From an uncultured Bacteroides sp. (GTDB lineage Bacteria; Bacteroidota; Bacteroidia; Bacteroidales; SM23-62), in contig CAZNQG010000001.1 of assembly GCA_964575235.1 (NCBI GenBank), positions 5,467 through 69,466 on the forward strand: a stretch of DNA of 64,000 bases. The letters run 5' to 3'. This document shows, in pieces, positions 45,179-62,968 of this stretch; positions within the stretch are counted from its first letter, which is position 1; each line of letters begins with the position of its first letter. The notes beneath the pieces are model-generated. The model was not told the origin of the DNA. It saw only the letters and a list, made by a program, of their open reading frames with translations, and did not search any database. Both the position numbers and the translations under genes were made by a program.

Positions 45179-45253
45179 GGGCGATTAGCTCAGTTGGTTC
45201 AGAGCACCTGCCTTACAAGCAGGGGGTCACTGGTTCGAATCCAGTATCGCCCA
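45179..45253 (+). tRNA. tRNA-Val (anticodon TAC)
   Basis: 75 nt. The acceptor stem GGGCGAT/ATCGCCC is fully paired. The D-arm is GCTC...GAGC, the anticodon arm is CCTGC-CTTACAA-GCAGG, and the T-arm is ACTGG-TTCGAAT-CCAGT. The discriminator is A and no CCA is encoded. Confidence 0.93.
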
Positions 45254-45266
45254 CCCAATAAAATAA

Positions 45267-45300
45267 GGCCTTTCGGTGTTTTCGTTGAAAGGCCCTTTTT
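45267..45300 (+). terminator. Rho-independent terminator candidate after tRNA-Val
   Basis: GGCCTTTC (45267-45274) pairs with GAAAGGCC (45287-45294) around a 12-nt loop. The tail is CTTTTT. Confidence 0.55.
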
Positions 45301-45431
45301 CTTTGGTTTAAATATGGTTTAAATATTTTTATGTTATTGTTTTATCCTTCAGTTTACTAATTTACCTTTCCAGTACTCCTGGGATCTATCATTACTTCAA
45401 TAAAGAATCACCTTAAACTTGACTACTGTAT

Positions 45432-45540
45432 ATTCCGGTGAGCATTGACCCACCATTCCGGCGACCTTTGACCCATCATTCCGGAGCATTGACCCCCCTG
45501 ATTTCAAGTTAGCCGATGTGTCATTCCGGCGCTTTGACCC
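45432..45540 (+). repeat. IS21-A left-end multiple terminal repeats (4 x (C)ATTCCGG-N4-6-TTGACCC)
   Basis: The four units lie at 45432-45451, 45454-45474, 45477-45495 and 45522-45540. Multiple subterminal repeats are a hallmark of IS21-family ends. Confidence 0.7.
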
Positions 45541-45605
45541 CCCGTTTCGTGGCAAAAGAAATAATGCTTTGATTTGATGTATTCGCAACATCAAATCACA
45601 AGAAA

Positions 45606-47096
45606 ATGGCTTATCACAAAGTTGAAATGGGAGAAAAGAAATTAGTAAAACGATTATCTGAAAGCGGAGTAAGTATCCACGAAATTGTTCGCCAGACTGG
45701 GCTCTCAAGGAATACAGTCCGAGGATACATCCGTGATGATGATCTGGACGAATCAACCGAAGAGCAATTGGATGACCGGTACAACCAGCTCTTAGAGTTG
45801 TTGCCTGACTATAAGTTAGAACTAGCACGCAAAGGCGTTACCCGTCAGTTATTATGGCTTGAATACAAGCAAAAACATCCCGATGGCTATGGTTACTCCC
45901 AGTTCTGTTATCACTTTCATGAATATCTTAAACGTGATGACGTCACGTTGCATATTGACCAAAAGCCTGGAGATAAGTTGTATGTTGATTTTACGGGTTG
46001 GAAATTAGAGATTGTTGACCGCAATACCGGAGAAATCATACCCCAGGAAGTATTTGTCAGCGTACTTGGCTACAGTTCATTTGGTTATCTCGAAGCCTGT
46101 AATAGCCAGAAGAAAGAAGACTTTCTTCATTGCATGGAGAATACTCTTCGATACATCGGCGGAGTACCTGCTGTCATCGTCCCGGATAATATGAAAGCAG
46201 CCGTCATCCAAGCGGATAATTATGAACCGGATTTGAACCGGAACCTACAGGAATTTGGGGAGCACCATGGCGTAGGGATCCTGCCAGCCAGAAGCCGTAA
46301 GCCGAGAGATAAGGCATGGGTTGAAAGGATGGTCGGGATCATCTACACCCACGTCTTTGCTCCTTTACGCGACCAGGTCTTCCATGATCAGTTTTCATTG
46401 AACCAGGCACTCTGGGACAAGCTGGAGGATCTCAACAACATGCCGCTGCAGAAACGACCGGAAAGTCGGCGTGAACTGCTGGAAAGGGATGAAAGGCCCC
46501 TTCTTAAGGATCTCACAGCTGAGCGGTACGTGGTCAAAGAATATGCTCAAGCGACAGTAATGAAAAACTCCCATGTTCATCTGTCCAGGGATAAACACTA
46601 TTACAGCGTTCCTTACAAATATGTCGGAAAGAAAATCAAGATAAGCTTTACCCGCGATCATGTCAGTGTGTTTTACAATCATCAACAGATTGCTTTTCAT
46701 CAGCGAGATCGCAGACCCTACAAATACACCACAGTTGCAGCTCACTTGCCTTCCACTCATCAGGTGATCCTGGACTGGAATCCGGAAAAGTTCATTAAAC
46801 AAGCATCCGAGATCTCCCAGGAAGTGGAACATTACATGCGGGAGATCCTGGAGAGGAAATATTATCCCGAACAAGCTTACCGAAGTTGTGCTGGCCTGTT
46901 GAACCTGGGAAGGAAGTACGGCCATCAGAGGCTGACAAATGCATGCCGGCGAGCAGCCACGTTCGGTAATTACGGTTACAAGACCATTGGCAATATCCTG
47001 AAAAACAACTATGACAATTTACCTGACTCAACGATACAGCAAAAGAAAAAGCTTCCCTTCCATGATAATATCCGGGGGGTTGGTAATTACAAATGA
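45606..47096 (+). CDS. istA: IS21 family transposase IstA
   Basis: 496 aa with an N-terminal HTH (SIHEIVRQTGLSRNTVRGYI) and an rve/DDE core (YVDFTG..., VIVPDNMKAAV, ...PRDKAWVER). Confidence 0.92.
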   Translation: MAYHKVEMGEKKLVKRLSESGVSIHEIVRQTGLSRNTVRGYIRDDDLDESTEEQLDDRYNQLLELLPDYKLELARKGVTRQLLWLEYKQKHPDGYGYSQFCYHFHEYLKRDDVTLHIDQKPGDKLYVDFTGWKLEIVDRNTGEIIPQEVFVSVLGYSSFGYLEACNSQKKEDFLHCMENTLRYIGGVPAVIVPDNMKAAVIQADNYEPDLNRNLQEFGEHHGVGILPARSRKPRDKAWVERMVGIIYTHVFAPLRDQVFHDQFSLNQALWDKLEDLNNMPLQKRPESRRELLERDERPLLKDLTAERYVVKEYAQATVMKNSHVHLSRDKHYYSVPYKYVGKKIKISFTRDHVSVFYNHQQIAFHQRDRRPYKYTTVAAHLPSTHQVILDWNPEKFIKQASEISQEVEHYMREILERKYYPEQAYRSCAGLLNLGRKYGHQRLTNACRRAATFGNYGYKTIGNILKNNYDNLPDSTIQQKKKLPFHDNIRGVGNYK

Positions 47097-47126
47097 TCTC
47101 AATAATAATCTATCAAAACCAAAAAT

Positions 47127-47801
47127 GTGATGAATGAAATTACACTGAACAAAATGAATGAGATGAAGTTCTACGGTATGCAGCGCACCTTTGAAATGTT
47201 GCTCACTACCAAGAACATTGATCAACTCGGAACGGATGAATTTATACATATGTTGATCCAGGCTGAATGGGAGGACCGCGAAAACAGAAAAGTTAATCGA
47301 TACATTAAGGCAGCCCGGTTCCGTCAAACAGCAACCGTAGAGCAGGTTGATTTTACCACCGCACGGCGATTGGACAAATCTTCTTTCCTTCGTTTTGCTG
47401 ACTGCAGCTTTATCCAAAAGGGTGAAAACATACTGATTACAGGGCCAACCGGTGTTGGTAAAAGCTATCTGGCTTCTGCACTTGGCCACCAGGCTTGCCT
47501 CAAAGGATACAAGGTCAAATACTATAACATGCAAAAATTGATCTCATGGCTGAAAATGTCACAGGCTGATGGAGCCTACTATCGAGAGATAGATAAAATC
47601 GAAAAATACAATCTGTTGATCCTTGATGACTTTGGTCTACAGCCCTTTGATGAGCAATCGAGAATTATACTCTTGGAGATTATTGAAGACCGTTACGATA
47701 AAAAATCCACCATTATAAGCTCTCAGATACCGGTTGCAAAATGGTACGAGCTAATCGGCGAAAATACGATTGCAGATTATCCTAACTTTTTTATTATGTG
47801 A
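47127..47801 (+). pseudogene. istB: IS21 helper ATPase IstB, 3'-truncated (last 7 codons and stop supplied by the RIT inverted repeat)
   Basis: Walker A (GPTGVGKSYLASALG) and Walker B (LLILDDFG) are present. The sequence ends ...GENTIAD|YPNFFIM*. It lacks the ~35-aa AI(L/I)DR(L/I)xHH...SYR tail seen in the istB fragment at 53693..54205. Confidence 0.8.
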
Positions 47802-47803
47802 AG
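47775..47803 (+). repeat. RIT left terminal inverted repeat
   Basis: GATTATCCTAACTTTTTTATTATGTGAAG. Its reverse complement occurs at 51278-51306 as GATTATCCTACCTTTTTTTATTATGTGAAG. Confidence 0.8.
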
Positions 47804-47929
47804 CTGTTTTTTGAAGGATCCTATTAATCAATTACTTATAAATATCCCTTCATCATTTTGTTAGCATAATAATTTCCTTTATATCCTGGGCATAAGCCCT
47901 GATTAAAGGTATCACTAAACAAAATTATT

Positions 47930-49181
47930 ATGCAAAACAATTTCGATTACGAAGAAATTACCTCCAAGGTTTACAATTATCTTAAGGAGGAATTTTCCTA
48001 CAAGTATGTTACCCTTCGTCATTACAGAAGTCGATGGCTTCCCGTTAAAAAGTATATGGAGAAGCATGGGCTAAAATTCATTAACCCGGCAGTGTGTAAA
48101 GGCTTTTTAATCGAGTTTTATAATGGTCGAACTCATGAAGAATTAACTGAAAAAGAAAAATACATCGAGAAATCCGTTTCAGTACTTTCCGAGTATATGG
48201 TGACTGGTTCTGTACAACGGAGATGTAAGGTCAGGTATTTGGACGGTTCTATTGGTCATTTGATGAAGGATTTTATTGCACATAAGCGATCTCATCGTTT
48301 AAGAGTAACAACTCTTGCTAAGATAGAAAGCCACTTGAGCACTTTTAATTTCTGGCTTTCTACGAATGGCATTTGCAGTATTAATGATATCAAACACCAT
48401 CACATTATCACCTTTATTAAAAGCCTTGATCCACATAAAAAAGCTCTCATCCATGATACTTTGATAGATTTACGCGGGTTTTTCAAATTTCTTTATGAGA
48501 AAGGAGTTATTCCTTCCAATTTATCAACCTTTATTCCTAAGGATAATTATCAGAAACAGAATAAATTACCCGCTTATTATACGGAAGCGGAAATTGAAAA
48601 GCTCCTGAAATCGATTGACAGAGGAAATATTGTAGGAAAAAGGGATTATGCTATTTTGGTACTTGCCGCTTATCTCGGTTTGAGGGCATCCGATATCGCC
48701 CGTCTTCGGTTCGAGAACTTACACTGGGATCAGAATACGATCATTCTCAGGCAATACAAGACTGGTAAAAATATAACCCTTCCTTTGTTGCCGGTGGTTG
48801 GGAATGCACTCCTTGATTATATCCAATACGGGAGGCCCAAATCAGATGAACAGTATATTTTTTTTACTTGTGATATCTCCATTCCTTTCCATTCGTGCAC
48901 ATACCATTACTGGTATGATAAACCGAAGATTTTCCTATGCTGGATTTAAATCAACTAACAGGAGATATGGGGGGCATGCCCTCCGCCATAGTCTTGTTAA
49001 GGAATTACTTAACAATAAGCAGTCCCTTCCTGTAATAAGCGAAGTCCTCGGCCATAAAAACACAACTTCGACCCGGCATTATATAAGGATAGATACTGAA
49101 TCCCTTGGTCAATGCGCTTTGGATGTCCCTCTTGTTGACCCAGCATTTTACAACCAGGAAGGAGGTCTATTACTGTCATGA
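47930..49181 (+). pseudogene. RIT tyrosine recombinase 1 (RitA-like), interrupted by a +1 frameshift in a T8 run
   Basis: ORFs 47930..48949 and 48798..49181 are two halves of one gene. Removing one T from the T8 run at 48858-48865 gives ...SDEQYIFLLVISPFLSIRAHTITGMINRR...GGHALRHSLV...LGHKNTTSTRHYIRID (R..HxxR..Y catalytic set), 416 aa in total. Confidence 0.8.
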
Positions 49182-50170
49182 ACAGTAAATCATTCTGGAG
49201 TGTATTCGCTCCACACATCAGAGACTTTATTAGTCTTAAAAGAAGCCTCGGCTATAAATACCAAGTAGAAGAAAGAATCCTATATACCTTTGATCGATTT
49301 ATACTGGATCAGGGTCATACCAATCCCGGATTAACCAAAGAGATATCTGATAAATGGGCTGATGGACGCCATAATGAAGCTGAGCTGACCATTTATGGTA
49401 AAATTAAGGTAGTAAAACAGTTGGCGGAACACTTACGTGATCAGGGCATCAAAACCTTTGTTCCTCAATTACCCAAATATCCAGGCAACACATTTATCTC
49501 TTACATCTATTCCCATGAAGAGATAAACGCTATGTTCCGGGCCTGCGACAGTCTGAGGATGAAATGCAGGAATGTTTATTCCTGTCTTTTAATCATGCCC
49601 TGCCTGTTACGGTTACTTTATGGGACAGGTATTCGTATCAATGAGGCTCTATCGTTAAAGAATAAGGATGTAAATATTAATGGGAGATTCCTGACTTTAA
49701 AGGATACCAAAAACGGAAAAGACAGGTTAATACCCATGTCAAGTTCGCTTACCGTCGTCTTCAAAGACTATCTGAAACAACGAAATAAGCTTCCTCTCAA
49801 TGGCTTGAAACGTGAAAATGGGCCATTCTTTGTTTCCTTGAATGGTGGAGAATGTACACAAGGTGCTGTACATCGCTGGTTCCGGAAGGTGCTTGTATTG
49901 GCGGGAATCCCTTTTACGGGTAACAGAAAAGGACCCAGGATCCATGATATCCGCCATACCTTCGCCTGTCATTCTTTTTTGAAGCTTTCCGATGAAGGTG
50001 TGGACCTGTATTGTTCATGGCCTTACCTTTCGACTTATCTCGGGCATCAGTCGCTGGAATCCACTGAGCAATATATAAGATTGACCACACAAATGTATCC
50101 AGAACTGCTGAAAGATACCGACGGACTGTATGTAGATGTTCTCCCGGATATTCCAGCCAAAACTAAATGA
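49178..50170 (+). CDS. RIT tyrosine recombinase 2 (RitB-like)
   Basis: 330 aa with GIRINEALSL (Arg I), HDIRHTFACH (HxxR) and LGHQSLESTEQYIRL (Tyr). ATGA overlap with the upstream gene. Confidence 0.85.
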   Translation: MNSKSFWSVFAPHIRDFISLKRSLGYKYQVEERILYTFDRFILDQGHTNPGLTKEISDKWADGRHNEAELTIYGKIKVVKQLAEHLRDQGIKTFVPQLPKYPGNTFISYIYSHEEINAMFRACDSLRMKCRNVYSCLLIMPCLLRLLYGTGIRINEALSLKNKDVNINGRFLTLKDTKNGKDRLIPMSSSLTVVFKDYLKQRNKLPLNGLKRENGPFFVSLNGGECTQGAVHRWFRKVLVLAGIPFTGNRKGPRIHDIRHTFACHSFLKLSDEGVDLYCSWPYLSTYLGHQSLESTEQYIRLTTQMYPELLKDTDGLYVDVLPDIPAKTK

Positions 50171-51201
50171 CTGCCATGAAGCAAGTAAACGATTTTACCC
50201 GGTTACTGTCTGGCTTTCTGAACAACTATCTGCCTCATGAAAAGGGAGTTAGTGCAAATACGATAAAGTCATACAGTTATACGTTCATCCTCTTTATCAA
50301 ATTTATGCGTGAGAACAGGAACGTACCTGCTACAAAGTTATCATTCACTCATCTTAAAAAGGATTTGGTTGTTGGATTCCTTGATTGGCTCCAGAACGAT
50401 AGGGGCTGTGGTGAGGCTACTCGCAATCAACGATTAGCAGCTCTATCTTCATTTATAAAATATGCCGAATATATGAATCCTGGTCATTTATTTGACTGCC
50501 ATGAAATATTATCCATCCCTGCCAAAAAAACAGAAAGCAAAACACGTAATTATTTGAGTATTGACGGCATGAAACTGCTGTTGCAACAACCCAATACTCA
50601 ACAAACCAAAGGGCTCCGGGACCTTGCTCTGTTATCCTTAATGTACGAGAGTGCCGCTAGGGTCCAGGAAATTATTGATCTGACTCCTGCTTCCCTGTTC
50701 ATCGCTAACAAACCCTATAGGGTTATCCTGCATGGGAAGGGTAACAAATACAGGTCAATACCTCTTCCAGACAAGCAGGCAGAACTGCTAAGATTATATA
50801 TATCCCAGAATGGTCTTTTAAACAGGGAAAATGCGCAAAAATCCTTGTTCCCAAATTACCAGGGGCAGAAGATGACACGTAATGGTATTAATAATGTCCT
50901 GGTTAAATATTTAAAGATGGCTAACAAAAAAAATCCCTCTTTGGTACCTGATCATCTGAGTTGTCATTCCATAAGACATACCAAGGCTATGCACTTATTG
51001 GAATCTAAGGTTGAATTGATACATATAAGAGACTTCCTGGGTCATAAATCAGTATTGACTACCGAAACCTATGCTCGTATGAATCCTAAGTTTACTTTTG
51101 AAGCGGTGAAGAACGCGTATAAAAACATAACTGTTGATAATATACCAGCCTGGAAGGGTAATAATGAATTAATGGTAATGCTGAAAAACCTTGCTAAATG
51201 A
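50167..51201 (+). CDS. RIT tyrosine recombinase 3 (RitC-like)
   Basis: 344 aa with an N-terminal SAM-like core-binding domain, ARVQEIIDL (Arg I), HSIRHTKAMHLL and LGHKSVLTTETYARM. ATGA overlap with the upstream gene. Confidence 0.85.
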   Translation: MTAMKQVNDFTRLLSGFLNNYLPHEKGVSANTIKSYSYTFILFIKFMRENRNVPATKLSFTHLKKDLVVGFLDWLQNDRGCGEATRNQRLAALSSFIKYAEYMNPGHLFDCHEILSIPAKKTESKTRNYLSIDGMKLLLQQPNTQQTKGLRDLALLSLMYESAARVQEIIDLTPASLFIANKPYRVILHGKGNKYRSIPLPDKQAELLRLYISQNGLLNRENAQKSLFPNYQGQKMTRNGINNVLVKYLKMANKKNPSLVPDHLSCHSIRHTKAMHLLESKVELIHIRDFLGHKSVLTTETYARMNPKFTFEAVKNAYKNITVDNIPAWKGNNELMVMLKNLAK

Positions 51202-51277
51202 GGTAGAATATTATGCAAAGAGATTAATTGAATATGGACAGATAAGTAGATGGTTCACAGAACATACCGTTATAATA

Positions 51278-51306
51278 CTTCACATAATAAAAAAGGTAGG
51301 ATAATC
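51278..51306 (-). repeat. RIT right terminal inverted repeat
   Basis: CTTCACATAATAAAAAAAGGTAGGATAATC on the + strand, which is the reverse complement of the left IR. Confidence 0.8.
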
Positions 51307-51954
51307 GGCAACAGTTTTGTCGGAGATTATATCGTACCATTGCTCAACTGGGAACTGTGAGGTGATGATCGTTGACTTCTGATCATGCCTGTCCTCGATT
51401 ATTTCAAGGAATGAAAGCCTGCCCGGGCTGTCCAGTGATTGCAGGCCAAAGTCGTCGATAATCAGCAGATCCACTTTCGCCATCCTGGTTATTTCCTTCA
51501 GATAAGAACCATCCGCTTTCAGCATCTTCAGCTTTGACAGAAGCTTGGCCATGTTCTCATACAGCACCTTAAATTCTTTAATACAGGCCTGGTGACCAAG
51601 GGCCGAAGCTACAAAACTTTTACCCACACCGGTAGCACCGGTTATGATGATGTTTTCATTTCGACGGATAAAATCGCAGCTGGCAAAACGAAGGATCTGA
51701 TTCCTGTCCAGGTTTCGTTTATCATCGTAGGTCAGATCTTCAATACAGGCTTTATACCTGAACCTGGACATGCGAACCAGTCTTTCGATTTTCCTTGTGT
51801 GCCTTTCATCCATCTCGGCATCGAGCAGGTAGTTGATCATTTCATCCTGTGTGTAGTTCTGATTCCTGCCAGCCTCCAAGGTGGTCTCAAAGGCTCTGCA
51901 CATGCCAAAGAAGTTAAGATGCTTCATCTTTTCCAGTAAAACTTCACTTTCCAT
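51280..51954 (-). pseudogene. istB: IS21 helper ATPase IstB (element B), 3'-truncated at the same codon as IstB-A
   Basis: Contains GATGVGKSFVASALG and LLIIDDFG. The sequence ends ...SDKTVAD|YPTFFIM*, with the last 7 codons and the stop lying inside the RIT right IR. Confidence 0.8.
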
Positions 51955-51983
51955 AATTGTTGTTTGATTTGTTAGTATTTGGA

Positions 51984-53526
51984 TTATTTATAGTACTTGT
52001 TGCCCCTGATGTTCTTGTGACTTGGTAATGGATCCTGGGACTCATCGTCATCGATGAACTTATCCATGTTATTTTCCAGTATGTTCTTGATGATTGTGTA
52101 ATTGTGGGTTCCGTATTCAAGGGCTCTGCGACAGGCATTTTCCACCCTCATGCTCCCGACTTTGGTAACAAGCTGCAATACCCCCGAACACGAACGATAC
52201 GCTTTTGCCGGGTATTTGCTTTCTTCGAGGATTTGGGTGATAAACTGACTTGTGTAGACACCCACCTTTTCGGCATCTGCCAGTAAGTTCTCGGGGTTCA
52301 GATCAAGATAATGTTTCTGATTCTGGGTCAGATGTTCCGGGACAGTGGTATATGCATGCGGGGCTCTGTCCCTGTCATGAGAGGCTATCAGATCATAGTT
52401 GCTGTATATCTCAACGGTTGACTGAGTGTAAACAATTTTAACCTTGCTGCCGATGTAGTAATGCGGTACGCTGTAATAATGTTTATCCCTGGGCATGTAG
52501 ACATGACAATGCCGGTATACCGTTCCGACAGCGTACTCCTTCATCTGATAATAGCATGCCGGCAACGGTTTCAACAGGTTCTTTTCCATCTGTTCAAACA
52601 GATCCCACCGGCTGTATCTCTTGTTGGTCAAAGGCATTTTGTTGTGTTTATCCAGCTCCCGGAGGATCGCCAGGTTCAACTGTTCAAGGCTGTGGAAGGT
52701 CTGGGACTGCAGCGGAACGTATACTCGATGGTACAATATCTTGATTACTCCTTCTACCAGGGATTTGTCGCGGGGCTTACGGATCCGGGCGGGAAAAACA
52801 ATGGTATCATAATGATCGGCAAAATCGGCAAAAGCTTCATTGAGCTGAGGCTCGTATGGATTGGTTTTAGTAACGGCCGATTTAAGATTATCCGGGACGA
52901 TACTTTTGGGTACACCGTTATAGAAGTAAAGTGCGTTCTCAACGCATGAGATAAAGTCCTCCTTCTTCTGGCTCATCGCTGCCTCCATGTAAGTATATTG
53001 GCTGGCGCCCATGATTGCTACAAATACTTCCACGGCTGTCCTGTCGCCGGTTTTCTTATCAACGACATGAAGCTTCTTGCCTGCAAAATCCACGAACATG
53101 CTATCTCCGGCCTTATGGTTCATACGCATCGTCGGTGAACTGCTTTTCTTCCATTTATTGTAGTAATGGCAAAACTGTGTTCTCTGATAGCCTCCCGGAT
53201 TTCCTCTGATGTAGCGTTCCCATAGCTTTCCTTTGGTCATCCCTGGTTTCTTCAAATCCCGGTCATAAATCGGGAACAACTCCAATAATTGATTCAGCTT
53301 TGGGGGATTTTCATTGGTTCTCGATTCAAACATCTTCCAGCTGCTTATCACTCAGTCGCATGATCTCATCATAATCCAGACCACAGACACTGAAGTAATC
53401 CAGGTACTTGGTGACCGTGTTGCGGGAGACACCCAGCAGCGTACTGATAAACCTTTTACTCTTGCCAGAGTTGTGTAAACGCAAAATCCTTCTTGTTTCC
53501 ATAATTTCAAGTTTTTTGTTGGACAT
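51984..53526 (-). pseudogene. istA: IS21 family transposase IstA (element B), split by a frameshift between HTH and catalytic parts
   Basis: ORF 53326..53526 encodes the HTH part (ISTLLGVSRNTVTKYL ... LSDKQLEDV*). ORF 51984..53351 encodes the remainder (FESRTNENPPKLNQLLELFP..., DDE core). The two frames overlap at 53326-53351. Confidence 0.8.
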
Positions 53527-53619
53527 GATTTAGAGAATTGGTACATATATCTATACCATAAGCTCCAAATCGTTGCCTGGAAAACAGTAATAATTATTAA
53601 CTTGAATGACGGCTTGGCG

Positions 53620-53712
53620 GGTGGTTCAATTTGAACCGGAGAAGGTGGCTCAGTTTGCCCCGGACAGCTATGCTCAGTTACGAGCGGATTGAATGGCTCA
53701 GTTTATCCGAAA
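53620..53712. repeat. IS21-B end repeats (4 units of ~GGTGGCTCAGTTTnnCCGGA, ~24-nt period)
   Basis: The units are GGTGGTTCAATTTGAACCGGA (53620-), GGTGGCTCAGTTTGCCCCGGA (53644-), TATGCTCAGTTACGAGCGGA (53669-) and AATGGCTCAGTTTATCCGAAA (53692-). Confidence 0.6.
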
Positions 53713-53718
53713 TTTCCA

Positions 53719-54447: not shown

Positions 54448-54455
54448 ATTAAAAA

Positions 54456-56128: not shown

Positions 56129-56215
56129 TAAAAAAACTGTCTCTTAACTTTATGTTCCCTGATGTCCGAGTTTTGATGAAGTCAAACAAATGTGCTTGGC
56201 TGTGCGGGCTGATAT

Positions 56216-57688
56216 TTATTCATATTTATAAATTCTTTCGACTACAAGTTTTGAACTAATCACTGCCATTGGCAAACCTGCTCCCGGTATTGTTGAAGCC
56301 CCAACATAAAAAGTATTTGAAAATTTTTCGTCATAATTCTTAGGTCTGAATGCTCCAATTTGCATCATACTATGAGACAATCCGAGACCTGCACCTTTAT
56401 ATAAGTTAAACTGATTTTGCCAGTCTTCAGGTGTATATTCCATTTGAAATACAATATCTTTTGAAATATCCTGATGGATTCTTATAGAAAAATCATCGAT
56501 TATACTTTTAATAATCTCTTGTTTATCTGACCAATCAATTTTGAATAGCAGATTTGGAACAGGGCATACAAAAAACAAGGCTTCGCAACCTTCCGGCGCA
56601 CAATCGGGATTGTGTTTCGATACTACATTTACATAATAATAAGGTTTTTCAAGAGTCCCTGGATTTTTCATCACATCTTTGGCATATTCTTCATAATTGT
56701 TGCCCAAAAAGTAGTTGTGGTGTTCTATTTGATTGAGTTTCTTATTTATGCCTACATAAAATGTCAAATAGCCCATTGTCCAACTCATTTTCGCAAGTTT
56801 CTTTGGAGCATATTTTCTTCGTTTAAAAACAATACCTCTAAAAAATGCGGCATCGGCATTTATTACAAAAATATCAGCTTTCCATGTTTTGCCAGTTTGG
56901 TCTGTCAGGAAATCTAATTTTCCGTTGCTACTTTTGTAATCTTTAATTTCAGTTTCGTAATTAAAAGTAGCCCCGAGTTTAAGTAATTCATTTACAAGGC
57001 TAGTAACAATAGTATACATGCCACCTTTTACATTGTAATATCCTGTATGCTTAAACTCAATATGTGAAAGTAAAGTGTAAACAGCATTGGTGTCAAAAGG
57101 AGTCCTGCCCAAGAAGAAAGCTATTAAAGAAACAATTTGCTTTACTTCTTTCGATTCAAAATAAAAATTTACCTGTTTCCAGAAGCTTTTTAATAATACA
57201 GGAAGGTGAATAGGGTTTACCTGCATTAAAGCTATCAGATAAGCAGGAATGCTGTTAAAATTTTGTTTTATTGCTATATCAACCGTGTCATTGTATAACT
57301 GCTCACACTTTTTTAGATATGCTGTAATTTTTTTTTTAAAATCAGGCTCAATCCCATCAAACTGTTCGCTCAATTTGACAATATCTTTGTAAAGCGAAAA
57401 TTTCTTATCACTACCCCTGAAATTTACCGCGTATAAAGGGTCAAGTTCAACAAATTCAAAAGGCATATCAATTCCACAATCTTTTAACAGTTCCTCAAAC
57501 TCATAAGGCATGCTAAAAAAACTTGGGCCAACATCAAAAGTAAAGCCTTCTTTTTTCAGTTGGTTTAGCCTGCCTCCTGCCTGTTTGTTTTTCTCAACAA
57601 AAGTAACTTTATAACCACGTGAAGCTAACCTTAATCCAGTTGAGAGTCCTCCTAGCCCTGTTCCTACTATCAATACAGTTTTATTCAT
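56216..57688 (-). CDS. crtI: Phytoene desaturase family protein
   Basis: 490 aa with an N-terminal FAD fold (VLIVGTGLGGLSTGLRLASRGYKVTFVEKNKQAGGR) and a C-terminal YVGASTIPGAGLPMAVISS. Confidence 0.9.
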   Translation of the reverse strand: MNKTVLIVGTGLGGLSTGLRLASRGYKVTFVEKNKQAGGRLNQLKKEGFTFDVGPSFFSMPYEFEELLKDCGIDMPFEFVELDPLYAVNFRGSDKKFSLYKDIVKLSEQFDGIEPDFKKKITAYLKKCEQLYNDTVDIAIKQNFNSIPAYLIALMQVNPIHLPVLLKSFWKQVNFYFESKEVKQIVSLIAFFLGRTPFDTNAVYTLLSHIEFKHTGYYNVKGGMYTIVTSLVNELLKLGATFNYETEIKDYKSSNGKLDFLTDQTGKTWKADIFVINADAAFFRGIVFKRRKYAPKKLAKMSWTMGYLTFYVGINKKLNQIEHHNYFLGNNYEEYAKDVMKNPGTLEKPYYYVNVVSKHNPDCAPEGCEALFFVCPVPNLLFKIDWSDKQEIIKSIIDDFSIRIHQDISKDIVFQMEYTPEDWQNQFNLYKGAGLGLSHSMMQIGAFRPKNYDEKFSNTFYVGASTIPGAGLPMAVISSKLVVERIYKYE

Positions 57689-58409
57689 CGTTCAGTTGTT
57701 TTTGTATTTTCGGATAAAGCTTATTCTTTACCCAATCAAATTCGGGTTCAATGGCTAATGTTTTTATACAATACTTTTCAGCCAATTCAAACTTCCCTAT
57801 TTCATAATAGGCATTTATTATGGTAGCTAATAAGTTTAAATAGTTCCAGTTGCCCTTTAACGAAGCAAGATTTTTTTCCATGAGTTCAAGGGCTTTTAAA
57901 TAATATTGCATGGCATCTGTTTTTGAACCGCCAAACATTGCAGGTGTATAAAATGCTATGTTTCCTAACTGAACATATCCAAAATAATTTGTACCGTCTA
58001 AGGATACTGATTTTTTTGCATAAGCTAAACTTTCCTGTCCAAGAAAAGGTGCTTTATATGGCGATAAACCAATTTTGAAACCAACAAATGCCGATTTATA
58101 TGCATTTATCATCGACATACCATATTGTTGTTTTTCCAGCTCAACAAGAAGATTTTCTGCTGCTTGAAGATATTTTTCGGCTTCGTCATCTTTATCCTGG
58201 TCAATGCAGTATGCCATATAGCCATATTGACAATTAATTAAATCTAATTTTTGTGCATTTGTAGATGCTTTATAGGAATCCATGTGCTTTTCCCAATCAG
58301 CCATATTCCCACTTACATAAGCCTTGTAAATTATTGTGTTTGTTTGGCCGAAAACCGAAACAAGCATTGTAATAAATATAGCTATGAGTATATATTTCTT
58401 TCTTTCCAT
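57681..58409 (-). CDS. Hypothetical secreted helical-repeat (TPR-like) protein embedded in the carotenoid operon
   Basis: Signal peptide ILIAIFITMLVSVFGQ and TPR-like helices (AMQYYLKALELMEKN, KFELAEKYCIKTLAIEPEF). The ORF overlaps crtI by 8 nt and the GT2 gene by 28 nt. Confidence 0.55.
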   Translation of the reverse strand: MERKKYILIAIFITMLVSVFGQTNTIIYKAYVSGNMADWEKHMDSYKASTNAQKLDLINCQYGYMAYCIDQDKDDEAEKYLQAAENLLVELEKQQYGMSMINAYKSAFVGFKIGLSPYKAPFLGQESLAYAKKSVSLDGTNYFGYVQLGNIAFYTPAMFGGSKTDAMQYYLKALELMEKNLASLKGNWNYLNLLATIINAYYEIGKFELAEKYCIKTLAIEPEFDWVKNKLYPKIQKQLNDE

Positions 58410-59473
58410 TCAAGTTTTGTGTGTTTTCTAATTAATAAAGCTTTCCCCATAATTGTGATAAAAAAAATTAAATGAAGGGGGAACAAAAGTATATTTAAGA
58501 GGATGTTTTGTTTGCTAACAGAAGAATAAAGCGATAGAATAAGAACCAAAGTTACAAAGTAAAATACCAGGTATTGAGGCAAGGCAACTAAAACAGGAAT
58601 AAAACTAAATGCGGAAAAACTCCAAAACAAAAAAGCAAAAACAGGCATGTTCCCAAAAAACATAAATACGTTTTTAGAAAATCCATTTCCAGCCTCTTTG
58701 TAAGTTTTGTACATTCTGCATTGAATTCGTTTTTCACCGGTTAAACAAGCAACTCTGATTTTTTCTTTTTTTAATAAACGGGCAATTGCAATATCTTCTA
58801 TAGCTGAATTTTTAAACAGTTGATGAGGCTGTATTTTTTTATAGGCTTCACCATCGAATAGCATGAATTGACCGTTTGCAGCAGCATGCGATTTAAATGG
58901 TGAAATCCTGACAAATATTAGTGGTAGAAGTGTTAAAAGAATATAGTTCATTAAAGGAACAGAAATTTTCTCGCTAAAAGTTTTTTGTAATTGGACTGGA
59001 AAAACAGATAATAATTTCAAATTAAACCTTTTTAAATAACCAACTGCATCGGGTATAAAACCTTCTTCAATTCTTACATCTGCATCAAGAAATAAAAAGT
59101 ATTTGCCACTTGCTTTTTGTGCCAGTTTAAAACAAGCATGGTTTTTGCCTAACCAGCCTTTGGGTAGGCCATCAGATTGTATCAAAACAATTCTTTTATC
59201 TTGCTTTGCAAAATCCTGCACCACTTTTGCTGTGCTATCGGTTGACTCATCATCAAAAACAATAATTTCAATGTTTTCGTTTCTTGATTTTTGTAAATCG
59301 GAAAGTAGAAATGAAATATTCGTTTCTTCATTTCTGGCCGGTATTAATACAGAAATATGTTCGTTAGTTGGTGCGGAAGAAATTTTGATTTTTTGTTTAA
59401 AAACCAGGTTTAAAACAACATTAATTAGTTGTATTCCCAAAAATAAAAACGATATGCAGGCAAGATATAACAT
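58382..59473 (-). CDS. Glycosyltransferase family 2 (CruC-like carotenoid glycosyltransferase candidate)
   Basis: ISVLIPARNEE, VFDDESTDST, LFLDADV (DxD) and multiple C-terminal TM helices. The carotenoid operon context supports the role. Confidence 0.8.
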   Translation of the reverse strand: MLYLACISFLFLGIQLINVVLNLVFKQKIKISSAPTNEHISVLIPARNEETNISFLLSDLQKSRNENIEIIVFDDESTDSTAKVVQDFAKQDKRIVLIQSDGLPKGWLGKNHACFKLAQKASGKYFLFLDADVRIEEGFIPDAVGYLKRFNLKLLSVFPVQLQKTFSEKISVPLMNYILLTLLPLIFVRISPFKSHAAANGQFMLFDGEAYKKIQPHQLFKNSAIEDIAIARLLKKEKIRVACLTGEKRIQCRMYKTYKEAGNGFSKNVFMFFGNMPVFAFLFWSFSAFSFIPVLVALPQYLVFYFVTLVLILSLYSSVSKQNILLNILLFPLHLIFFITIMGKALLIRKHTKLEWKERNIYS

Positions 59474-60093
59474 TACGATATTTTTGCTTTTTGTGAGTTA
59501 AGAACCTGCCTGAAGAAACCGTTATATTCCGTTTCTAAATCTGACTGTTGGATGTCTTTAGCTAAAAATGGTTTGATATAGATATATAGGTTTGGCTTGC
59601 TATCGGAAAAGTAATCAACTAGGTTTGCAACAAATATTATTTGAGTCTCTGGCGAAACATTTTGGATAATTCTTTCGACTCCCTTTTCAAAATGTACAAT
59701 ATCATTATGCATTGAGTGTATTTGTCCCTGCGGAAACATTAAAACCAAATTTTCAGGCTGTTGTAATAGCTCTATGCTATAATTGAGGCTTTCGATTATG
59801 TTTCGTGATTTCTTTTTTATTGAATATCCACCTGAATACTGAAAGTACCAATGTTTTTCTAGCTGTTCTTCAAGCATCATAAAATGAAATTTACGGTAGA
59901 TTTTTTCTTTGTTAAGATATTCAACCCAAAAACCATCCCACCAACTAACATGGTGGGCAATTACCAATACAGGTTTTCCATTGTCGGCAAACTCACCATT
60001 GATACATACAGAATTAAAATTTCGATTGATTAAGAAACGGCTTAACCATTGAAACATTGGATATATTACCTTATGATGTTTTGCCTTAATCAT
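59473..60093 (-). CDS. Lysophospholipid acyltransferase family protein (CruD-like carotenoid-glycoside acyltransferase candidate)
   Basis: HHVSWWDG (HX4D acyltransferase motif). The start is taken at ATG 60093 (MIKAKHH) because the ORF-track start at 60138 is TTG and would overlap the upstream gene by 43 nt. Its stop overlaps the GT2 start (TAATG). Confidence 0.7.
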   Translation of the reverse strand: MIKAKHHKVIYPMFQWLSRFLINRNFNSVCINGEFADNGKPVLVIAHHVSWWDGFWVEYLNKEKIYRKFHFMMLEEQLEKHWYFQYSGGYSIKKKSRNIIESLNYSIELLQQPENLVLMFPQGQIHSMHNDIVHFEKGVERIIQNVSPETQIIFVANLVDYFSDSKPNLYIYIKPFLAKDIQQSDLETEYNGFFRQVLNSQKAKIS

Positions 60094-60095
60094 GT

Positions 60096-60743
60096 TTACA
60101 GTAATAAAGTTAACAAAGCAAAAAACACAAACTGGCAAATAAAAAGAATAGCAGACAAAGGGTTCTTGGTCTCTATTTTAAAAATCTTGAAAAGCAATAC
60201 AAAACAAAAAGCTATTGCATACCAGGCAATATAATTCCTGATAGGAACTTCCGAATTCTGCCATGTCCACATATTCATTTTTGGCGCTACCTGCTCAAGA
60301 ACAATATCATATACAAGCATTAATGCAGGAGCAACAAACACGGCAAGCCATTTATTTCCTTTTAAAGAATCGGTTATTGCTGTAGCCGTGTATGTTAAAA
60401 ACAACCAGTTAATACCAATCATTAAAGGTGTTTCAAACATTTTTAACCCTAAGGCATTGCCATAAGTATAAATTCCAAAAATCAATCCTGTTTTTACACC
60501 AATAACTTCAATTACATATCCTGAAATAAAAATTAATAGAAATATCAGAACATCTTTTAAAGCATATTTTTTATGATAAATTGCTAAAAGATAAGAATTA
60601 AGCAGCAAGGCAAATGGGGTAATAACAATAAAAAATTCTTTTGAAAAAGGAATGATAAATCCTAAAAGCCCAACAAGGTAAAAGATAACAATAAACTTCT
60701 TTACATCGGCAATTGGTATTTTGTTTTTAGGATATAATTCCAT
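60096..60743 (-). CDS. Carotenoid biosynthesis membrane protein (PF04240/DUF422, CruF-like 1',2'-hydratase family)
   Basis: 215-aa polytopic protein with GYVIEVIGVKTGLIFGIYTYG and ETPLMIGINW, a typical pattern for this family. Confidence 0.75.
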   Translation of the reverse strand: MELYPKNKIPIADVKKFIVIFYLVGLLGFIIPFSKEFFIVITPFALLLNSYLLAIYHKKYALKDVLIFLLIFISGYVIEVIGVKTGLIFGIYTYGNALGLKMFETPLMIGINWLFLTYTATAITDSLKGNKWLAVFVAPALMLVYDIVLEQVAPKMNMWTWQNSEVPIRNYIAWYAIAFCFVLLFKIFKIETKNPLSAILFICQFVFFALLTLLL

Positions 60744-60754
60744 TTTTTGAAAGT

Positions 60755-61289
60755 CTATTTATTATGCTCAATCCACAAGAGGTTTGAGGTATGAAAACCC
60801 AATTTTTCAGCTTTTTCCAAATATTCTTATTTGATAGCATCAGGTATGGTCTTTTCCCTTGATAGTATCCACAAGTAGTCAAAACTCGCTCCACATACCA
60901 AAGCGTATTTGTATTCTGTATCAATGGCTATAACATTATAACCTGAATAGAACGGGCCAAAAAATGATACTTTTAACATAGCAATTGTATCGACTCCCAC
61001 GAATTTTGCTTTGCCAATGGCCTCTTTCCATTCTTTTTGTTCATAATCGTAACCACGGTTAGTTACTTTTATTTTGCCATCATTGCGTAAGGTGTATTCT
61101 GCAGTTGTATTGTTCAATCCTTTTTCGAATTTAAAATCGAAACGGGCAATCTCATACCATGTTACCTAAATAGTCTTCCTTCTTAAAAGGCGAAACTGCT
61201 GTAATACTTTTTGGTATTGATGAGCAGGAACATAATGAAACAATCATAGCTGCTGCAATTAAATTGAAAATGTTTTTTGAGAAATTCAT
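60755..61289 (-). pseudogene. Bacterial lipocalin (Blc-like outer-membrane lipoprotein) gene with a frameshift and an in-frame stop
   Basis: Own translation: MNFSKNIFNLIAAAMIVSLCSCSS...PFKKEDYLGN then a frame break at 61157-61166 (GGTAACATGG, where GGTACATGG would give G-T-W-Y-E). Translation resumes as WYEIARFDFKFEKGL...VSFFGPFYSGYNVIAID...YLWILSREKTIPDAIK. An in-frame TAA at 60827-60829 is followed by EYLEKAEKLGFHTSNLLWIEHNK*, which still aligns to the Blc C-terminus. Confidence 0.75.
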
Positions 61290-61301
61290 ATTTTTTATGG
61301 T

Positions 61302-61832
61302 TTACTTAAAGCTAAAATTTTGAACGTCAGATAGAACACGGTCAATGATTTTTTTAAACCATACCGTGTAATTTTCAGGATTTTTTTGAATTTGTTCTAA
61401 AAGTCTGTCACTTTTAACATATTCAAAATCACACACCTCTGTTGGTTCGGGAATTGGCAAATCATCAGTAAAGCCAACAAAAACATGGTCAAACTCATAT
61501 TCTGTTAAGCCGTTTTCAAATTCTTCTTTATAAATAAAGTCAAATAGTTTGGTGAGTTTTACGTGCTTTATGCCCATTTCTTCATTCAGCCTTCTTACTA
61601 CTGCGTTTTCATTGCTCTCATTTGGTTTGGGATGCGTGCAGGCAGTATTTGTCCATAACCCAGGTGAATGATATTTGCTTTCGGCTCTTCTCTGAAGCAG
61701 GAGTTTCCCCTGCGAGTTAAAAATAAAAACAGAAACAGCCCTATGCAGTTGTGCTTTCTGGTGTGCTTCGAGTTTTTCCATTTCTCCAACTACAGTATCA
61801 TTGCTATCTACAAGTATTACTTTTTCAGTCAT
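61302..61832 (-). CDS. idi: Isopentenyl-diphosphate delta-isomerase, type 1 (Nudix)
   Basis: LHRAVSVFIFNSQGKLLLQRRAESKYHSPGLWTNTACTHP and EYEFDHVFVG. Confidence 0.9.
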   Translation of the reverse strand: MTEKVILVDSNDTVVGEMEKLEAHQKAQLHRAVSVFIFNSQGKLLLQRRAESKYHSPGLWTNTACTHPKPNESNENAVVRRLNEEMGIKHVKLTKLFDFIYKEEFENGLTEYEFDHVFVGFTDDLPIPEPTEVCDFEYVKSDRLLEQIQKNPENYTVWFKKIIDRVLSDVQNFSFK

Positions 61833-62675
61833 TTAAATAAGTTTAGTTTTATACAAAAAGGCTACTTGTAGTATTATCAAGTACTTTTGAAAATTCGGAA
61901 CCCTCATTCGTTTTTTAAGGACTTTTTCAGGTGAGGTTCTTTTTATTCTAAGAAATAAGCTTTTGTAATAATAAAAAGCCAGGGCAACAGCCAATTTCGA
62001 CCTTCCGGGTAATTGTTTTAGCCCTATCCATGCTTCATCAAAATCTTTTTGTATCGATTCTTCAATTAATTGTTTTGTTTGCTGATTAAATGTGCTGTTT
62101 GATATATCGGGAAAATAACTTCTGCCTAAATTATTCATGTCATCTTTTAAATCTCTTAGAAAATTCACTTTCTGAAACGCAGAACCTAATTTTTGGGCAG
62201 GATGTTTTAACCTTTCAAACAACCCATTTTCTCCATTGCAAAACACTTTTAAGCACATCAATCCAACCACATCGGCCGAACCATAAACGTATATGTCAAA
62301 ATCTTTTGAAGTAGTATATTTCGTTCTTGACAAATCATTTTCCATGCTTTTCATAAACGACTGAATATGCTCAATGCTTATATTATATGCTTTCACGGTG
62401 TCGGCAAACGCTGTGAGAATGGTGTTGGTACTAATGCCATTTTTCAAAGCATAATCAAGATCTTCATTTAATTTAGCCAGTAAAAAGGCTTTATCATATC
62501 CATGAAAACTATCTACAATTTCATCGGCAAGGCGTACAAATCCATAAATAGCATAAATAGCCCGTTTTTTATACTTTTCCAATAACGATGTCGCCAAGGA
62601 AAACGAAGTGCTGTATTCTTTAGTAATCAGCTTCGATATTTTGTAACTATTTTCTATGTAAAAATCAATGTTCAT
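61833..62675 (-). CDS. crtB: Phytoene (or related squalene/phytoene family) synthase
   Basis: 280 aa with YGFVRLADEIVD (DxxxD motif 1) and YGSADVVGLM...; FLRDLKDD (motif 2). It directly abuts the idi start. Confidence 0.9.
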   Translation of the reverse strand: MNIDFYIENSYKISKLITKEYSTSFSLATSLLEKYKKRAIYAIYGFVRLADEIVDSFHGYDKAFLLAKLNEDLDYALKNGISTNTILTAFADTVKAYNISIEHIQSFMKSMENDLSRTKYTTSKDFDIYVYGSADVVGLMCLKVFCNGENGLFERLKHPAQKLGSAFQKVNFLRDLKDDMNNLGRSYFPDISNSTFNQQTKQLIEESIQKDFDEAWIGLKQLPGRSKLAVALAFYYYKSLFLRIKRTSPEKVLKKRMRVPNFQKYLIILQVAFLYKTKLI

Positions 62676-62946
62676 TTATTAGTCGAGCGTATAATGTATT
62701 TTTCAAATATCTAACTGTGTATTAATTATTTCTTTTTAAAACTGTAAAATACAACAAAATTCTGTTTAGATTTGAGCGTTGGTAAAAATTGCACTCTTTT
62801 GCAAAATTTGGTTTGTGGGTCAGTAACTTAGCTGAAACTTTCTCTTCATTTTCGTTCATTTTTATTCATAGTTGTTTTATAAACAATTTCATAAAACATT
62901 GATAATCAATATATTAGAATGAAATCAAAAGAATAGCTATGAAGAT

Positions 62947-62968
62947 GTTCGAATCCATTATCACCCAC
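62947..62968 (+). repeat. Imperfect direct repeat of the tRNA-Val 3' end (attR-like island boundary)
   Basis: GTTCGAATCCATTATCACCCAC compared with tRNA positions 45233-45254, GTTCGAATCCAGTATCGCCCAC. 20 of 22 positions are identical and the orientation is the same. Confidence 0.5.

Follow-up and report, generated by a model that had tools for sequence, protein, structure and literature searches.

Integration by tyrosine integrases targeting tRNA 3′ ends, followed by decay driven by insertion sequences (ISs), is a textbook mechanism. Cis-mobilizable elements (CIMEs), described for streptococcal ICE families, are remnants bounded by att sites, with no genes for recombination or transfer. Genomic islands integrated in tDNAs can be recognized with the Islander criteria (Hudson, Lau & Williams 2015; PMC4383910). 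In Bacteroidota, integrative mobilizable elements of the NBU1/NBU2 type use the 3′ end of tRNA-Leu or tRNA-Ser as their integration site (PMC5704250). Recombinase-in-trio (RIT) elements are ∼3.5 kb in size and predominate in alpha- and beta-proteobacteria, and many have been reported inside transposition genes and in genomic islands (Van Houdt et al. 2012; PMC3414803).

The locus described here lies in a 64,000-nucleotide stretch of DNA (hereafter, the window) that is part of a 78,419-bp MAG contig. As in Islander tDNA islands, an intact tRNA gene is followed downstream, at a distance of 17.7 kb (within the 2–200 kb range), by an intergenic fragment that has the same orientation, reaches the end of the tRNA, and is outside any conserved coding domain (table 1). 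The fragment starts at the T-stem/T-loop, one known crossover sublocation, and composition and cargo are foreign. Unlike those islands, the fragment is imperfect (20/22) and the flank is not demonstrably native; the region also has no integrase of its own, and a purely formal filter might pass the RIT ORFs. NBU1/NBU2-type elements share with the locus the phylum, a tRNA 3′ end as target, and direct-repeat flanks. Among relatives, the 7.2-kb tRNA-Val island of L027 belongs with these elements, and its target is the orthologous FolC-linked tRNA-Val. The window lacks the integrase, perfect repeat, and distal terminator-like sequence of L027, and has no relaxase or oriT module. Like CIMEs, the locus has its cargo flanked by two att-like repeats and encodes no dedicated integrase, but the putative att sites differ at 2 of 22 positions and the interior is mostly IS debris. 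The RIT element resembles described members in its three tandem tyrosine recombinase genes, 4-nt overlaps, size of ∼3.5 kb, and location in a transposition gene within an island; it differs in having a frameshifted ritA and a Bacteroidota host, and in being a passenger rather than a module for integration at a tRNA site.

Table 1. Features of the tRNA-Val locus, in window coordinates
Feature	Position	Strand	Support or remarks
tRNA-Val(TAC), intact	45179..45255	+	ARAGORN; Rfam RF00005, 75.5 bits
Intrinsic terminator of tRNA-Val	45267..45304	+	12-bp stem then T-run
AT-rich noncoding spacer	45305..45427	.	IS21 homology begins only at 45427/8
IS21-family element #1	45428..47777	+	istA 45606–47096, istB 47127–47801; Pfam
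RIT (recombinase-in-trio) element	47778..51303	+	3526 bp; three PF00589 ORFs
RIT genes	ritA 47930–48949 plus 48798–49181; ritB 49178–50170; ritC 50167–51201	+	
IS21-family element #2, inverted	51304..53600 (right-hand coordinate approximate)	-	Inverted repeats I1–I4
IS21-family element #3, internally deleted	53640..54290 (boundaries approximate)	+	Pfam IstB_IS21 positions 82–235 only
IS5/IS1182-like DDE transposase gene	54633..56000	-	Pfam DUF772, DDE_Tnp_1_2
Carotenoid cassette	56189..62798	-	33% GC, 6.6 kb; Pfam, NCBIfam
Junction segment with distal repeat	62799..63058	.	260 bp, 25–31% GC
Distal copy of tRNA-Val 3′ end, 20/22	62947..62968	+	Probable att scar
T9SS-sorted metallophosphoesterase-like gene	63059..64000, on to ∼64186 past window	-	Por_Secre_tail; 375 aa

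The tRNA-Val Anchor and Its Distal Repeat

The tRNA-Val(TAC) gene anchors the locus. It is the single tRNA-Val called by ARAGORN and Rfam, and its end is at 45253 or 45255, depending on the call. The order of FolC then tRNA-Val(TAC) is kept in at least 13 distant relatives, and by eye, a hairpin and T-run are found at the same place after the tRNA in most relatives. Positions 45256–45427 have an overall GC content of 30%.

The final 22 nt of the tRNA, GTTCGAATCCAGTATCGCCCAC (45233–45254), recur on the same strand as GTTCGAATCCATTATCACCCAC (62947–62968) with 20 of 22 positions identical, in agreement with the preliminary description, and identity between the copies does not extend into their flanks. 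The match begins at G53, in the final T-stem pair ahead of the T-loop, and extends one base beyond the discriminator, and the left break of the distal copy is exactly at the T-loop, as in att cores. Both mismatches (G64->T and G69->A) fall within stems of the tRNA. The distal copy is therefore unable to pair with the 5′ half of the host tRNA, and does not represent an unaltered host 3′ end that was displaced.

The repeat is unlikely to be due to chance, but its significance is less extreme than the chance of 1e-5 estimated in the preliminary description, which was about 100 times too optimistic. With the 22-mer fixed, a second match occurred in 0 of 100 shuffles. When any subsegment of the tRNA was allowed to match within the same-strand 18.7 kb downstream, none of 1000 block shuffles attained the observed ungapped score of 14 (maximum of 13, in nine shuffles), giving a p of roughly 1e-3. 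Of 372 tRNAs in the fetched loci, the distal copy most resembles host-type tRNA-Val, over other isoacceptors.

The sequence of the distal copy is also present in an independent Logan contig from the same sample (L001). A search for a donor tRNA or an attP found the exact distal 22-mer in no fetched locus other than this contig, and the 22-mer has no match in IMG/VR. The proximal 22-mer has 34 matches in IMG/VR, of which 31 are inside complete, ARAGORN-called tRNA-Val genes that are apparently phage-encoded, and these matches are uninformative on att sites.

The distal copy is located between crtB (ends at 62675) and the T9SS gene (ends at 63059). Homology to relatives of the carotenoid (crt) cassette stops at 62798 and homology to relatives of the T9SS gene stops at 63059, hence the repeat sits at a structural seam. 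The 260-bp segment in between has no homology to relatives of either, and any promoter or terminator signals in it do not exceed chance level. A terminator-like sequence trails the distal copies in the relatives L027, L011, and L010; none follows the distal copy here. Plasmid and phage similarity searches, done with the whole region and with the junction segment, returned no match.

Content of the Region Downstream of the tRNA

Composition changes abruptly at the tRNA. The first 45 kb of the window are 54% GC with a gene GC3 of about 0.70 (0.56–0.72), the IS/RIT block is 37–47% GC, and the crt genes are 30–36% GC. The drop coincides with the join between the tRNA and IS21 #1, and between the repeats there are three distinct compositions. 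These values bear out two earlier observations, that composition drops after the tRNA and that the carotenoid operon is AT-rich. Likewise, Pfam and NCBIfam annotations and comparisons of the IS21 elements and the cassette uphold the view that the interior is mobile or horizontally shared DNA.

Six IS and RIT pieces are within 11 kb (45.4–56.0 kb). IS21 #1 has an intact left end with multiple terminal repeats but lacks ∼195 nt at its right end, the right inverted repeat among them. Its nucleotide identity to intact copies (L126/L127) is 92.6%, over 45427–47777 only, and its IstB is 224 aa, against the 242 aa encoded by the intact copy. IS21 #2 is 70–74% identical to IS21 #1; its istB (51280–51954) is cut at the same codon as that of IS21 #1 and its istA is frameshifted (51984–53351 plus an N-terminal HTH at 53340–53526). 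What remains of IS21 #3 is the C-terminal 170 aa of IstB (53693–54205) between terminal-repeat-like “TGGCTCAG” motifs. The IS5-like gene has an NCBIfam IS5-family match under its cut-off. A C-terminal transposase fragment of the IS3/IS481 type, tentatively called by eye at 54310–54450, has no Pfam support.

The unit between IS21 #1 and IS21 #2 has the characteristics of a RIT element, namely three adjacent tyrosine recombinase genes, short overlaps (4 nt each for ritA′/ritB and ritB/ritC), and a size of about 3.5 kb. The gene ritA is frameshifted and its C-terminal catalytic part is in another frame. Ends of the element were placed according to the identical “YPxFFIM*” tails on both IstB proteins. 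Because both proteins share this RIT-derived tail, two RIT insertions followed by a deletion between the two RIT copies are suggested. Such a deletion would also account for the arrangement in which the left halves of two different IS21 elements lie on either side of the RIT.

Neither boundary has an integrase gene, as had been described, and the only tyrosine recombinases are those of the RIT trio. Pfam searches of all ORFs of at least 80 aa from 45.2 to 64 kb identified no Arm-DNA-binding/SAM_5 integrase and no relaxase/oriT mobilization module. For integrase pseudogenes, a tblastn search with the L027 integrase matched only the RIT genes, and weakly. The RIT trio was considered and rejected as the integrase of the island, as it is a self-contained 3.5-kb unit inside istB, its ritA is broken, and targeting of tDNAs is not known for RITs.

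The compact carotenoid cassette is horizontally shared between Bacteroidales genomes. Its genes are ordered crtB, idi, a decayed lipocalin, a CruF-like hydratase, an acyltransferase, a CruG-like glycosyltransferase, a 242-aa protein, and a CrtI-family desaturase. It has 78.7% nucleotide identity to that of L120 over exactly 56189–62798, and 80–87% identity to those of L117–L119 and L122, where it is at unrelated chromosomal sites. In every genome that carries it, the cassette is 33–38% GC, and no tRNA gene or tRNA fragment adjoins the cassettes of other genomes. A composite transposon carrying the cassette was also rejected; IS elements are on the crtI side only and there is nothing IS-like between crtB and the T9SS gene.

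The gene beyond the distal repeat is compositionally foreign. The T9SS gene (P0129 is the full-length protein) has a GC of 0.42 and a GC3 of 0.46, versus about 0.70 for host genes, and no host window of 940 nt is under 0.47 GC. Its relatives (L002 and L129–L132) are found in different surroundings that lack both a tRNA-Val and a crt cassette nearby. In L129, from another MAG, the copy is 85% identical, has a GC of 0.41, and is beside a gene of 0.54 GC. No gene on the 78,419-bp source contig is a close homolog of this neighbor, hence synteny is not shared.

Integration at the Same tRNA-Val in Relatives

Relatives across Bacteroidales show repeated integration at the FolC-linked tRNA-Val. In L027, the tRNA-Val is followed by the 7.2-kb island, which encodes a tyrosine integrase (Arm-DNA-bind_5, SAM_5, and Phage_integrase) and is bounded by a perfect 46-nt repeat; the integrase adjoins the distal copy of this repeat, and the terminator-like sequence comes after that copy. 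Further scars of 18 and 13 nt are present in L027, and tRNA-Val 3′ fragments are also in L011, L010, and L012.

The comparison with related genomes that was proposed in the preliminary description gave no empty site in the collections searched, from either the FolC side or the T9SS side, and in none of the relatives does the T9SS gene come after tRNA-Val. The best FolC relatives are only 63–72% identical in FolC, and in these, the sequence ends soon after FolC or other genes are present without tRNA-Val there.

Origin of the Repeat

The region downstream of the tRNA is most likely not one element but an accreted, decayed island of three layers: an IS graveyard at 45.4–56.0 kb, the AT-rich carotenoid-glycoside-ester cassette, and at least one foreign gene after the scar. 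At present, the region is probably immobile. Within it, we put at about even the chances that the 22-nt repeat is a genuine att scar, the decayed island having built up at a tRNA hot spot. Under the att-scar reading, a tyrosine integrase would have inserted an element into the FolC-linked tRNA-Val, leaving a displaced or element-borne copy of the 3′ end, and the cognate integrase would later have been lost, plausibly through a deletion between two RIT copies in direct repeat (or their collapse during assembly). The repeat, the foreign content, the use of the site in relatives, and the absence of an integrase are direct observations, from which we infer both these events, including site-specific recombination as the origin of the repeat, and their timing.

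Consistent with an att scar are the canonical geometry, the p of about 1e-3, the resemblance to tRNA-Val, the position at a seam, the foreign interior, the precedent of L027, the shared RIT-derived IstB tails, and junctions confirmed by Logan contigs. Conversely, the strongly unameliorated cargo of 33% GC fits oddly with a scar that has diverged by 9%. The repeat is only 22 nt with two mismatches, no terminator follows the distal copy, and no remnant of an integrase is present outside of the RIT. Other crt cassettes occur without a tRNA, an empty site was not found, the nearest relatives of the host have no tRNA-Val at all behind FolC, and the join between tRNA and IS21 lacks independent support.

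The earlier proposal of a decayed island integrated in the tRNA is sustained by geometry and by the hot spot in relatives, but not in its placement of an island/host junction at 62968, which is unconfirmed given a T9SS flank that is not of host type. Likewise, the RIT/IS21 anatomy fits the suggested loss of the integrase in a deletion there, but no integrase remnant was found. That the distal repeat is the outermost edge of the island is unprovable from the window, and the repeat may be an internal boundary of a tandem array.

A stricter version, in which a single integration into tRNA-Val produced one 17.7-kb island, with 62947–62968 as the outer attR, a native T9SS gene, and an integrase deleted later, is unlikely. 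The geometry and significance of the repeat and its location in the gap that separates the crt cassette from the next gene suit such an island, the RIT–RIT deletion offers a route to integrase loss, and L129 demonstrates that a low-GC copy of the T9SS gene can reside in a high-GC genome. However, the neighbor of that copy is not shared with this contig, and the GC3 of the T9SS gene and the GC of host windows argue against native DNA to the right of the repeat. Nor does the distal copy have a native-looking terminator or the ability to pair with the 5′ half of the host tRNA, and the three interior compositions argue for several acquisitions.

Three other explanations are each improbable. The distal 22-mer could be the 3′ stump of a paralogous tRNA-Val from an ancestral tandem array, its 5′ part destroyed by insertion of ISs and the crt cassette with no site-specific integration. 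Tandem arrays of two to four tRNA-Val copies are indeed found after FolC in L050, L064, and L072, a degenerate second copy is in L012, and paralogs differ at stem positions, where both mismatches lie here. But copies in the arrays of relatives are 20–100 nt apart and then followed by a terminator, which the distal copy lacks, and its left break at the T-loop is like that of att cores. A stump also needs a native flank, yet the composition of the flank is atypical.

To a similarly small degree, we credit a fortuitous match or an unrelated tRNA-like fragment, with the foreign block having been gained through IS/RIT events or homologous recombination and located by chance beside the tRNA. A BLAST search of both window strands with a 152-nt query yielded an E of just 0.028, six IS/RIT pieces are crowded into 11 kb, the crt cassette occurs elsewhere without linkage to a tRNA, and there is no integrase. 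Nevertheless, no shuffle in 1000 reached the observed score, and the match is correctly oriented, is on the expected side of the tRNA, extends up to the tRNA 3′ end, and is at a structural seam. Scars are present at the same hot spot in relatives, and with ISs on one side of the cassette only, it is not a composite transposon.

It is also doubtful that the locus is an assembly artifact, that is, a 54%-GC genome joined to DNA of another genome, or from far away in its own, at the conserved tRNA-Val or at repeated IS/RIT sequences, making an island that is contiguous in no cell. The source is a MAG contig, and of the Logan contigs from the same run (SRR14802572; k = 31), one ends within the tRNA at 45224, and its successor begins inside IS21 at 45481. 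The tRNA-to-IS21 join (45225–45480) is thus without independent assembly support, composition steps down exactly there, and the a_L-RIT-b_L′ structure could be a collapse across two RIT copies. On the other hand, independent Logan contigs confirm three internal junctions: IS21 #1 to RIT, the IS5-like gene to crtI (L128 reaches window position 55873), and crtB to repeat to T9SS gene. The order of tRNA, terminator, and IS is an ordinary one in native DNA, and a random misjoin is not expected to have a same-strand, tRNA-derived repeat 17.7 kb away.

Finally, it is very unlikely that the crt cassette and tRNA-Val-derived att scars form a nonautonomous, CIME-like pigment element moved in trans by NBU-like, tRNA-Val-specific integrases of the L027 type, a proposal that, if true, would explain the same 33%-GC cassette in unrelated Bacteroidales genomes.

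Implications

As an ordinary, worn-out genomic island, the locus is of modest importance and bears on no open question. It offers a caution: a repeat of a tRNA fragment does not by itself fix the boundary of an island if the flank is atypical and the contig is metagenomic. For the order, the comparisons show that the FolC-linked tRNA-Val is a recurrent site of integration across Bacteroidales. They also document the horizontal gain of a complete carotenoid-glycoside-ester pathway by a sediment-type Bacteroidales lineage of 54% GC.

The 3' End of tRNA-Val Recurs Downstream

The last 22 nucleotides of tRNA-Val recur with 20 of 22 identities on the same strand, at both positions where a preliminary description placed them (table below). 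The repeat runs from G53 to one base beyond the discriminator and identity between the two copies ends with it, their flanks having nothing more in common. Relative to the proximal copy, the distal copy carries G64->T and G69->A, both in stems, so that pairing with the 5' half of the window tRNA-Val is not possible. Among 372 tRNAs from all loci fetched for comparison, the nearest to the distal copy is the host-type tRNA-Val (two mismatches) and no isoacceptor is nearer; the exact distal sequence was found in no tRNA of the fetched loci and in no viral contig.

The repeat is real and a chance origin is unlikely, though less so than the probability of 1e-5 estimated earlier, which we recomputed as p ~1e-3. 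No shuffle of the window produced a second match to the fixed 22-mer, a test that takes no account of the free choice of segment. In a fairer test, any tRNA sub-segment could match anywhere in the 18.7 kb of same-strand sequence downstream, and the result was set against composition-preserving block shuffles (n = 1000); none reached the observed score of 14 (0/1000) and the highest score, 13, was seen in nine. BLAST of a 152-nt query against the whole window, both strands, gave E = 0.028.

The exact proximal 22-mer is also present in 34 IMG/VR viral contigs. Thirty-one of these matches are inside complete ARAGORN-called tRNA-Val genes that have a different 5' half and are apparently phage-encoded; two contigs (L089 and L104) have the 22-mer without a tRNA call and in one (L114) it is at the contig end.

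We read the repeat as an att scar derived from tRNA-Val, within a decayed island of several layers that lacks an integrase and built up at a tRNA hot spot; this interpretation has about an even chance of being correct.

Features of the tRNA-Val region (window coordinates)
Feature	Position	Strand	Remarks
tRNA-Val(TAC)	45179-45253/5	+	sole tRNA gene in window
Proximal repeat copy, GTTCGAATCCAGTATCGCCCAC	45233-45254	+	last 22 nt of tRNA-Val
Intrinsic terminator of tRNA-Val	45267-45294		strong
IS21 #1	45428-47777		left end intact; last ~195 nt, including right inverted repeat, absent
RIT element	47778-51303		3526 bp; ritA frameshifted
IS21 #2			inverted, different copy; 70-74% nt identity to IS21 #1; istB truncated, istA frameshifted
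IS21 #3	53640-54290		internal deletion; only C-terminal 170 aa of IstB left
IS5/IS1182-like transposase gene	54633-56000		
Carotenoid genes	56216-62675	-	last block before distal repeat
Distal repeat copy, GTTCGAATCCATTATCACCCAC	62947-62968	+	same strand as tRNA-Val
T9SS-sorted phosphoesterase-like gene	63059 to ~64186	-	

The Right Edge of the Island

Position 62968 cannot be asserted as the outer edge of the island. The T9SS gene to its right has a GC content of 0.42 and a GC3 of 0.46 (host genes, ~0.70; carotenoid genes, 0.24-0.31), and no 940-nt host window has a GC content <0.47; this atypical composition implies that foreign-looking DNA continues beyond the repeat. Relatives of the gene are found in other contexts, including low-GC genomes (L002 and L130-L132), and their homology to the window stops at the stop codon. 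The distal repeat is within a 260-bp seam (62799-63058) that is part of neither neighbor's homology block, 149 nt outside that of the carotenoid cassette, a position to be expected for a junction between separately acquired pieces.

In the classical model of integration, the displaced native 3' end of the tRNA sits at the distal site with the native terminator. We found no terminator after the distal copy; in verified cases in relatives, terminator-like sequence does come after the distal copies. It is unlikely, in our judgment, that the two copies bound one single island in the strict sense. Against the other edge evidence, the arrangement in locus L129 (73-3952; GCA_964567565.1 CAZMNJ010000180.1) can favor a native right flank: its copy of the T9SS gene (85% identical, GC 0.41) neighbors an arabinofuranosidase gene with a GC content of 0.54, showing that a low-GC copy can occupy a high-GC genome. 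The 78,419-bp source contig of the window has no close homolog of that neighbor and synteny with L129 is thus not shared. In L129, too, homology to the window stops at the stop codon, so the gene itself resembles a small unit passed from genome to genome.

tRNA-Val Is a Recurrent Integration Site in Relatives

An empty site in close relatives had been proposed as a check; the loci compared yielded none. The metagenome relatives identified by FolC are only 63-72% identical, and the closest lack tRNA-Val after FolC; these share ppk-his-phoH-nitroreductase-folC with the window and continue with genes for a histidine kinase, a 143-aa membrane protein, and a DUF1080 protein, none of which is in the window. 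In distant relatives (FolC identity of 50-57%), the order FolC then tRNA-Val(TAC) is conserved, indicating that the linkage is ancestral.

In one relative (L027, 9314-16921), FolC and tRNA-Val are followed by a 7.2-kb insert that encodes an AAA_25 protein and, near its distal end, a tyrosine integrase with Arm-DNA-bind_5, SAM_5, and Phage_integrase domains. A perfect 46-nt repeat (16600-16645), covering the tRNA from its anticodon stem to its 3' end, borders the insert; beyond it, extra 18-nt and 13-nt tRNA-Val scars (16749-16761, 16789-16806, and 16909-16921) suggest repeated integration events. In L011 (5380-5799) and L010 (2285-2499), the 3' part of tRNA-Val and its terminator are copied 140-360 nt downstream, and L012 has a degenerate second tRNA-Val copy downstream (11739-11816). 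The upstream part of the L011 copy resembles a different anticodon arm. These inserts and fragments indicate that tRNA-Val is a recurrent integration site at which short scars persist, which supports the att-scar reading of the window 22-mer; they also imply that scars may predate, or be independent of, the cargo now adjacent. That the distal copy is instead the stump of a tandem tRNA-Val paralogue is improbable.

In most relatives, a hairpin and T-run, read by eye, are at the same place after tRNA-Val as the terminator in the window, where an AT-rich spacer of 123 nt separates it from IS21 #1. Between FolC and tRNA-Val, the window also has a histone-H1-like gene (44529-44828, minus strand; 99 aa, Lys/Ala-rich), for which tblastn found no homolog in the FolC-relative loci L003-L029.

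Composition of the Interior

As first described, the interior consists wholly of mobile DNA or the carotenoid operon, every piece between the repeats being mobile or horizontally shared. We give little credence to the alternative that the tRNA match is irrelevant and the foreign DNA was acquired via insertion sequences, a view that fits this content and has the rarity of the repeat in shuffles to explain.

Boundaries of IS21 #1 follow from comparison with intact copies in other samples (L126 and L127; 92.6% nucleotide identity). The Phage_integrase profile is split between two ritA ORFs in different frames, 47930-48949 (profile positions 4-98) and 48798-49181 (110-170), the latter overlapping the start of ritB by 4 nt. 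Likewise, istA of IS21 #2 is divided into an N-terminal HTH part (53340-53527) and a 455-aa body (51984-53351) in different frames. The IS21 #3 remnant retains both sets of terminal TGGCTCAG repeats. After it, a short ORF end (54310-54450) resembles by eye the C-terminus of an rve-type transposase; Pfam gave no support for this likeness.

IstB of IS21 #1 and of IS21 #2 are cut at the identical codon (47671-47803 and 51278-51410) and end in the same RIT-encoded tail, YP(N/T)FFIM*. RIT must thus have entered istB at one and the same point in each of two distinct IS21 elements, which suggests that it has a specific target site inside istB. The present order, left half of one IS21, RIT, and inverted left half of the other, suggests the expected product of deletion, or assembly collapse, between directly repeated RIT copies. 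The anatomy thus fits the deletion put forward in the preliminary description, and a collapse as well; its further suggestion, that the integrase was lost, perhaps thereby, is conjectural, with RIT-RIT deletion being a plausible route by which this could have happened.

The carotenoid cassette encodes CrtB, IPP isomerase, a lipocalin, a CruF-like hydratase, an acyltransferase, a CruG-like glycosyltransferase, a 242-aa protein, and a CrtI-family desaturase, which together make up a pathway leading to a glycosylated, acylated carotenoid. The lipocalin gene is decayed (96 aa vs. 166 aa in L120). Homologous cassettes in the same order are found in many Bacteroidales. Nucleotide homology to the best relatives spans exactly 56189-62798 (78.7% for L120; 80-87% for L117-L119 and L122); their cassettes are at unrelated chromosomal sites and have GC contents of ~33% (L117-L120) and 38% (L122) in flanks of 35-44%. 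No tRNA genes or fragments were found beside the crt cassettes of other genomes. Compact and AT-rich, the cassette is a horizontally shared unit.

Assembly Support

Independent support came from k=31 Logan contigs of the same run (SRR14802572), which confirm the junctions of IS21 #1 with RIT (L125; window 45481-48752), of the IS5-like gene with crtI (L128, reaching 55873), and of crtB, the repeat, and the T9SS gene (L001). The host-side contig (L124) ends at 45224, inside tRNA-Val and just before the T-arm, so the assembly graph of the sample appears to branch in the 3' part of the tRNA. None of these Logan contigs covers 45225-45480, which leaves room for a chimeric join at the tRNA or the insertion sequence; given the confirmed junctions, we consider an assembly chimera quite doubtful.

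Relation to Known Systems

The candidate island has the tDNA, fragment, orientation, CDS, and length expected of tDNA islands under the Islander criteria (PMC4383910) and fails the integrase test in its meaningful version. NBU-type elements of Bacteroidota (PMC5704250) are similar in target choice, but their genes are all absent from the island. The RIT element matches the published description (PMC3414803) and is a passenger. The region is a further instance of a well-known type of feature.
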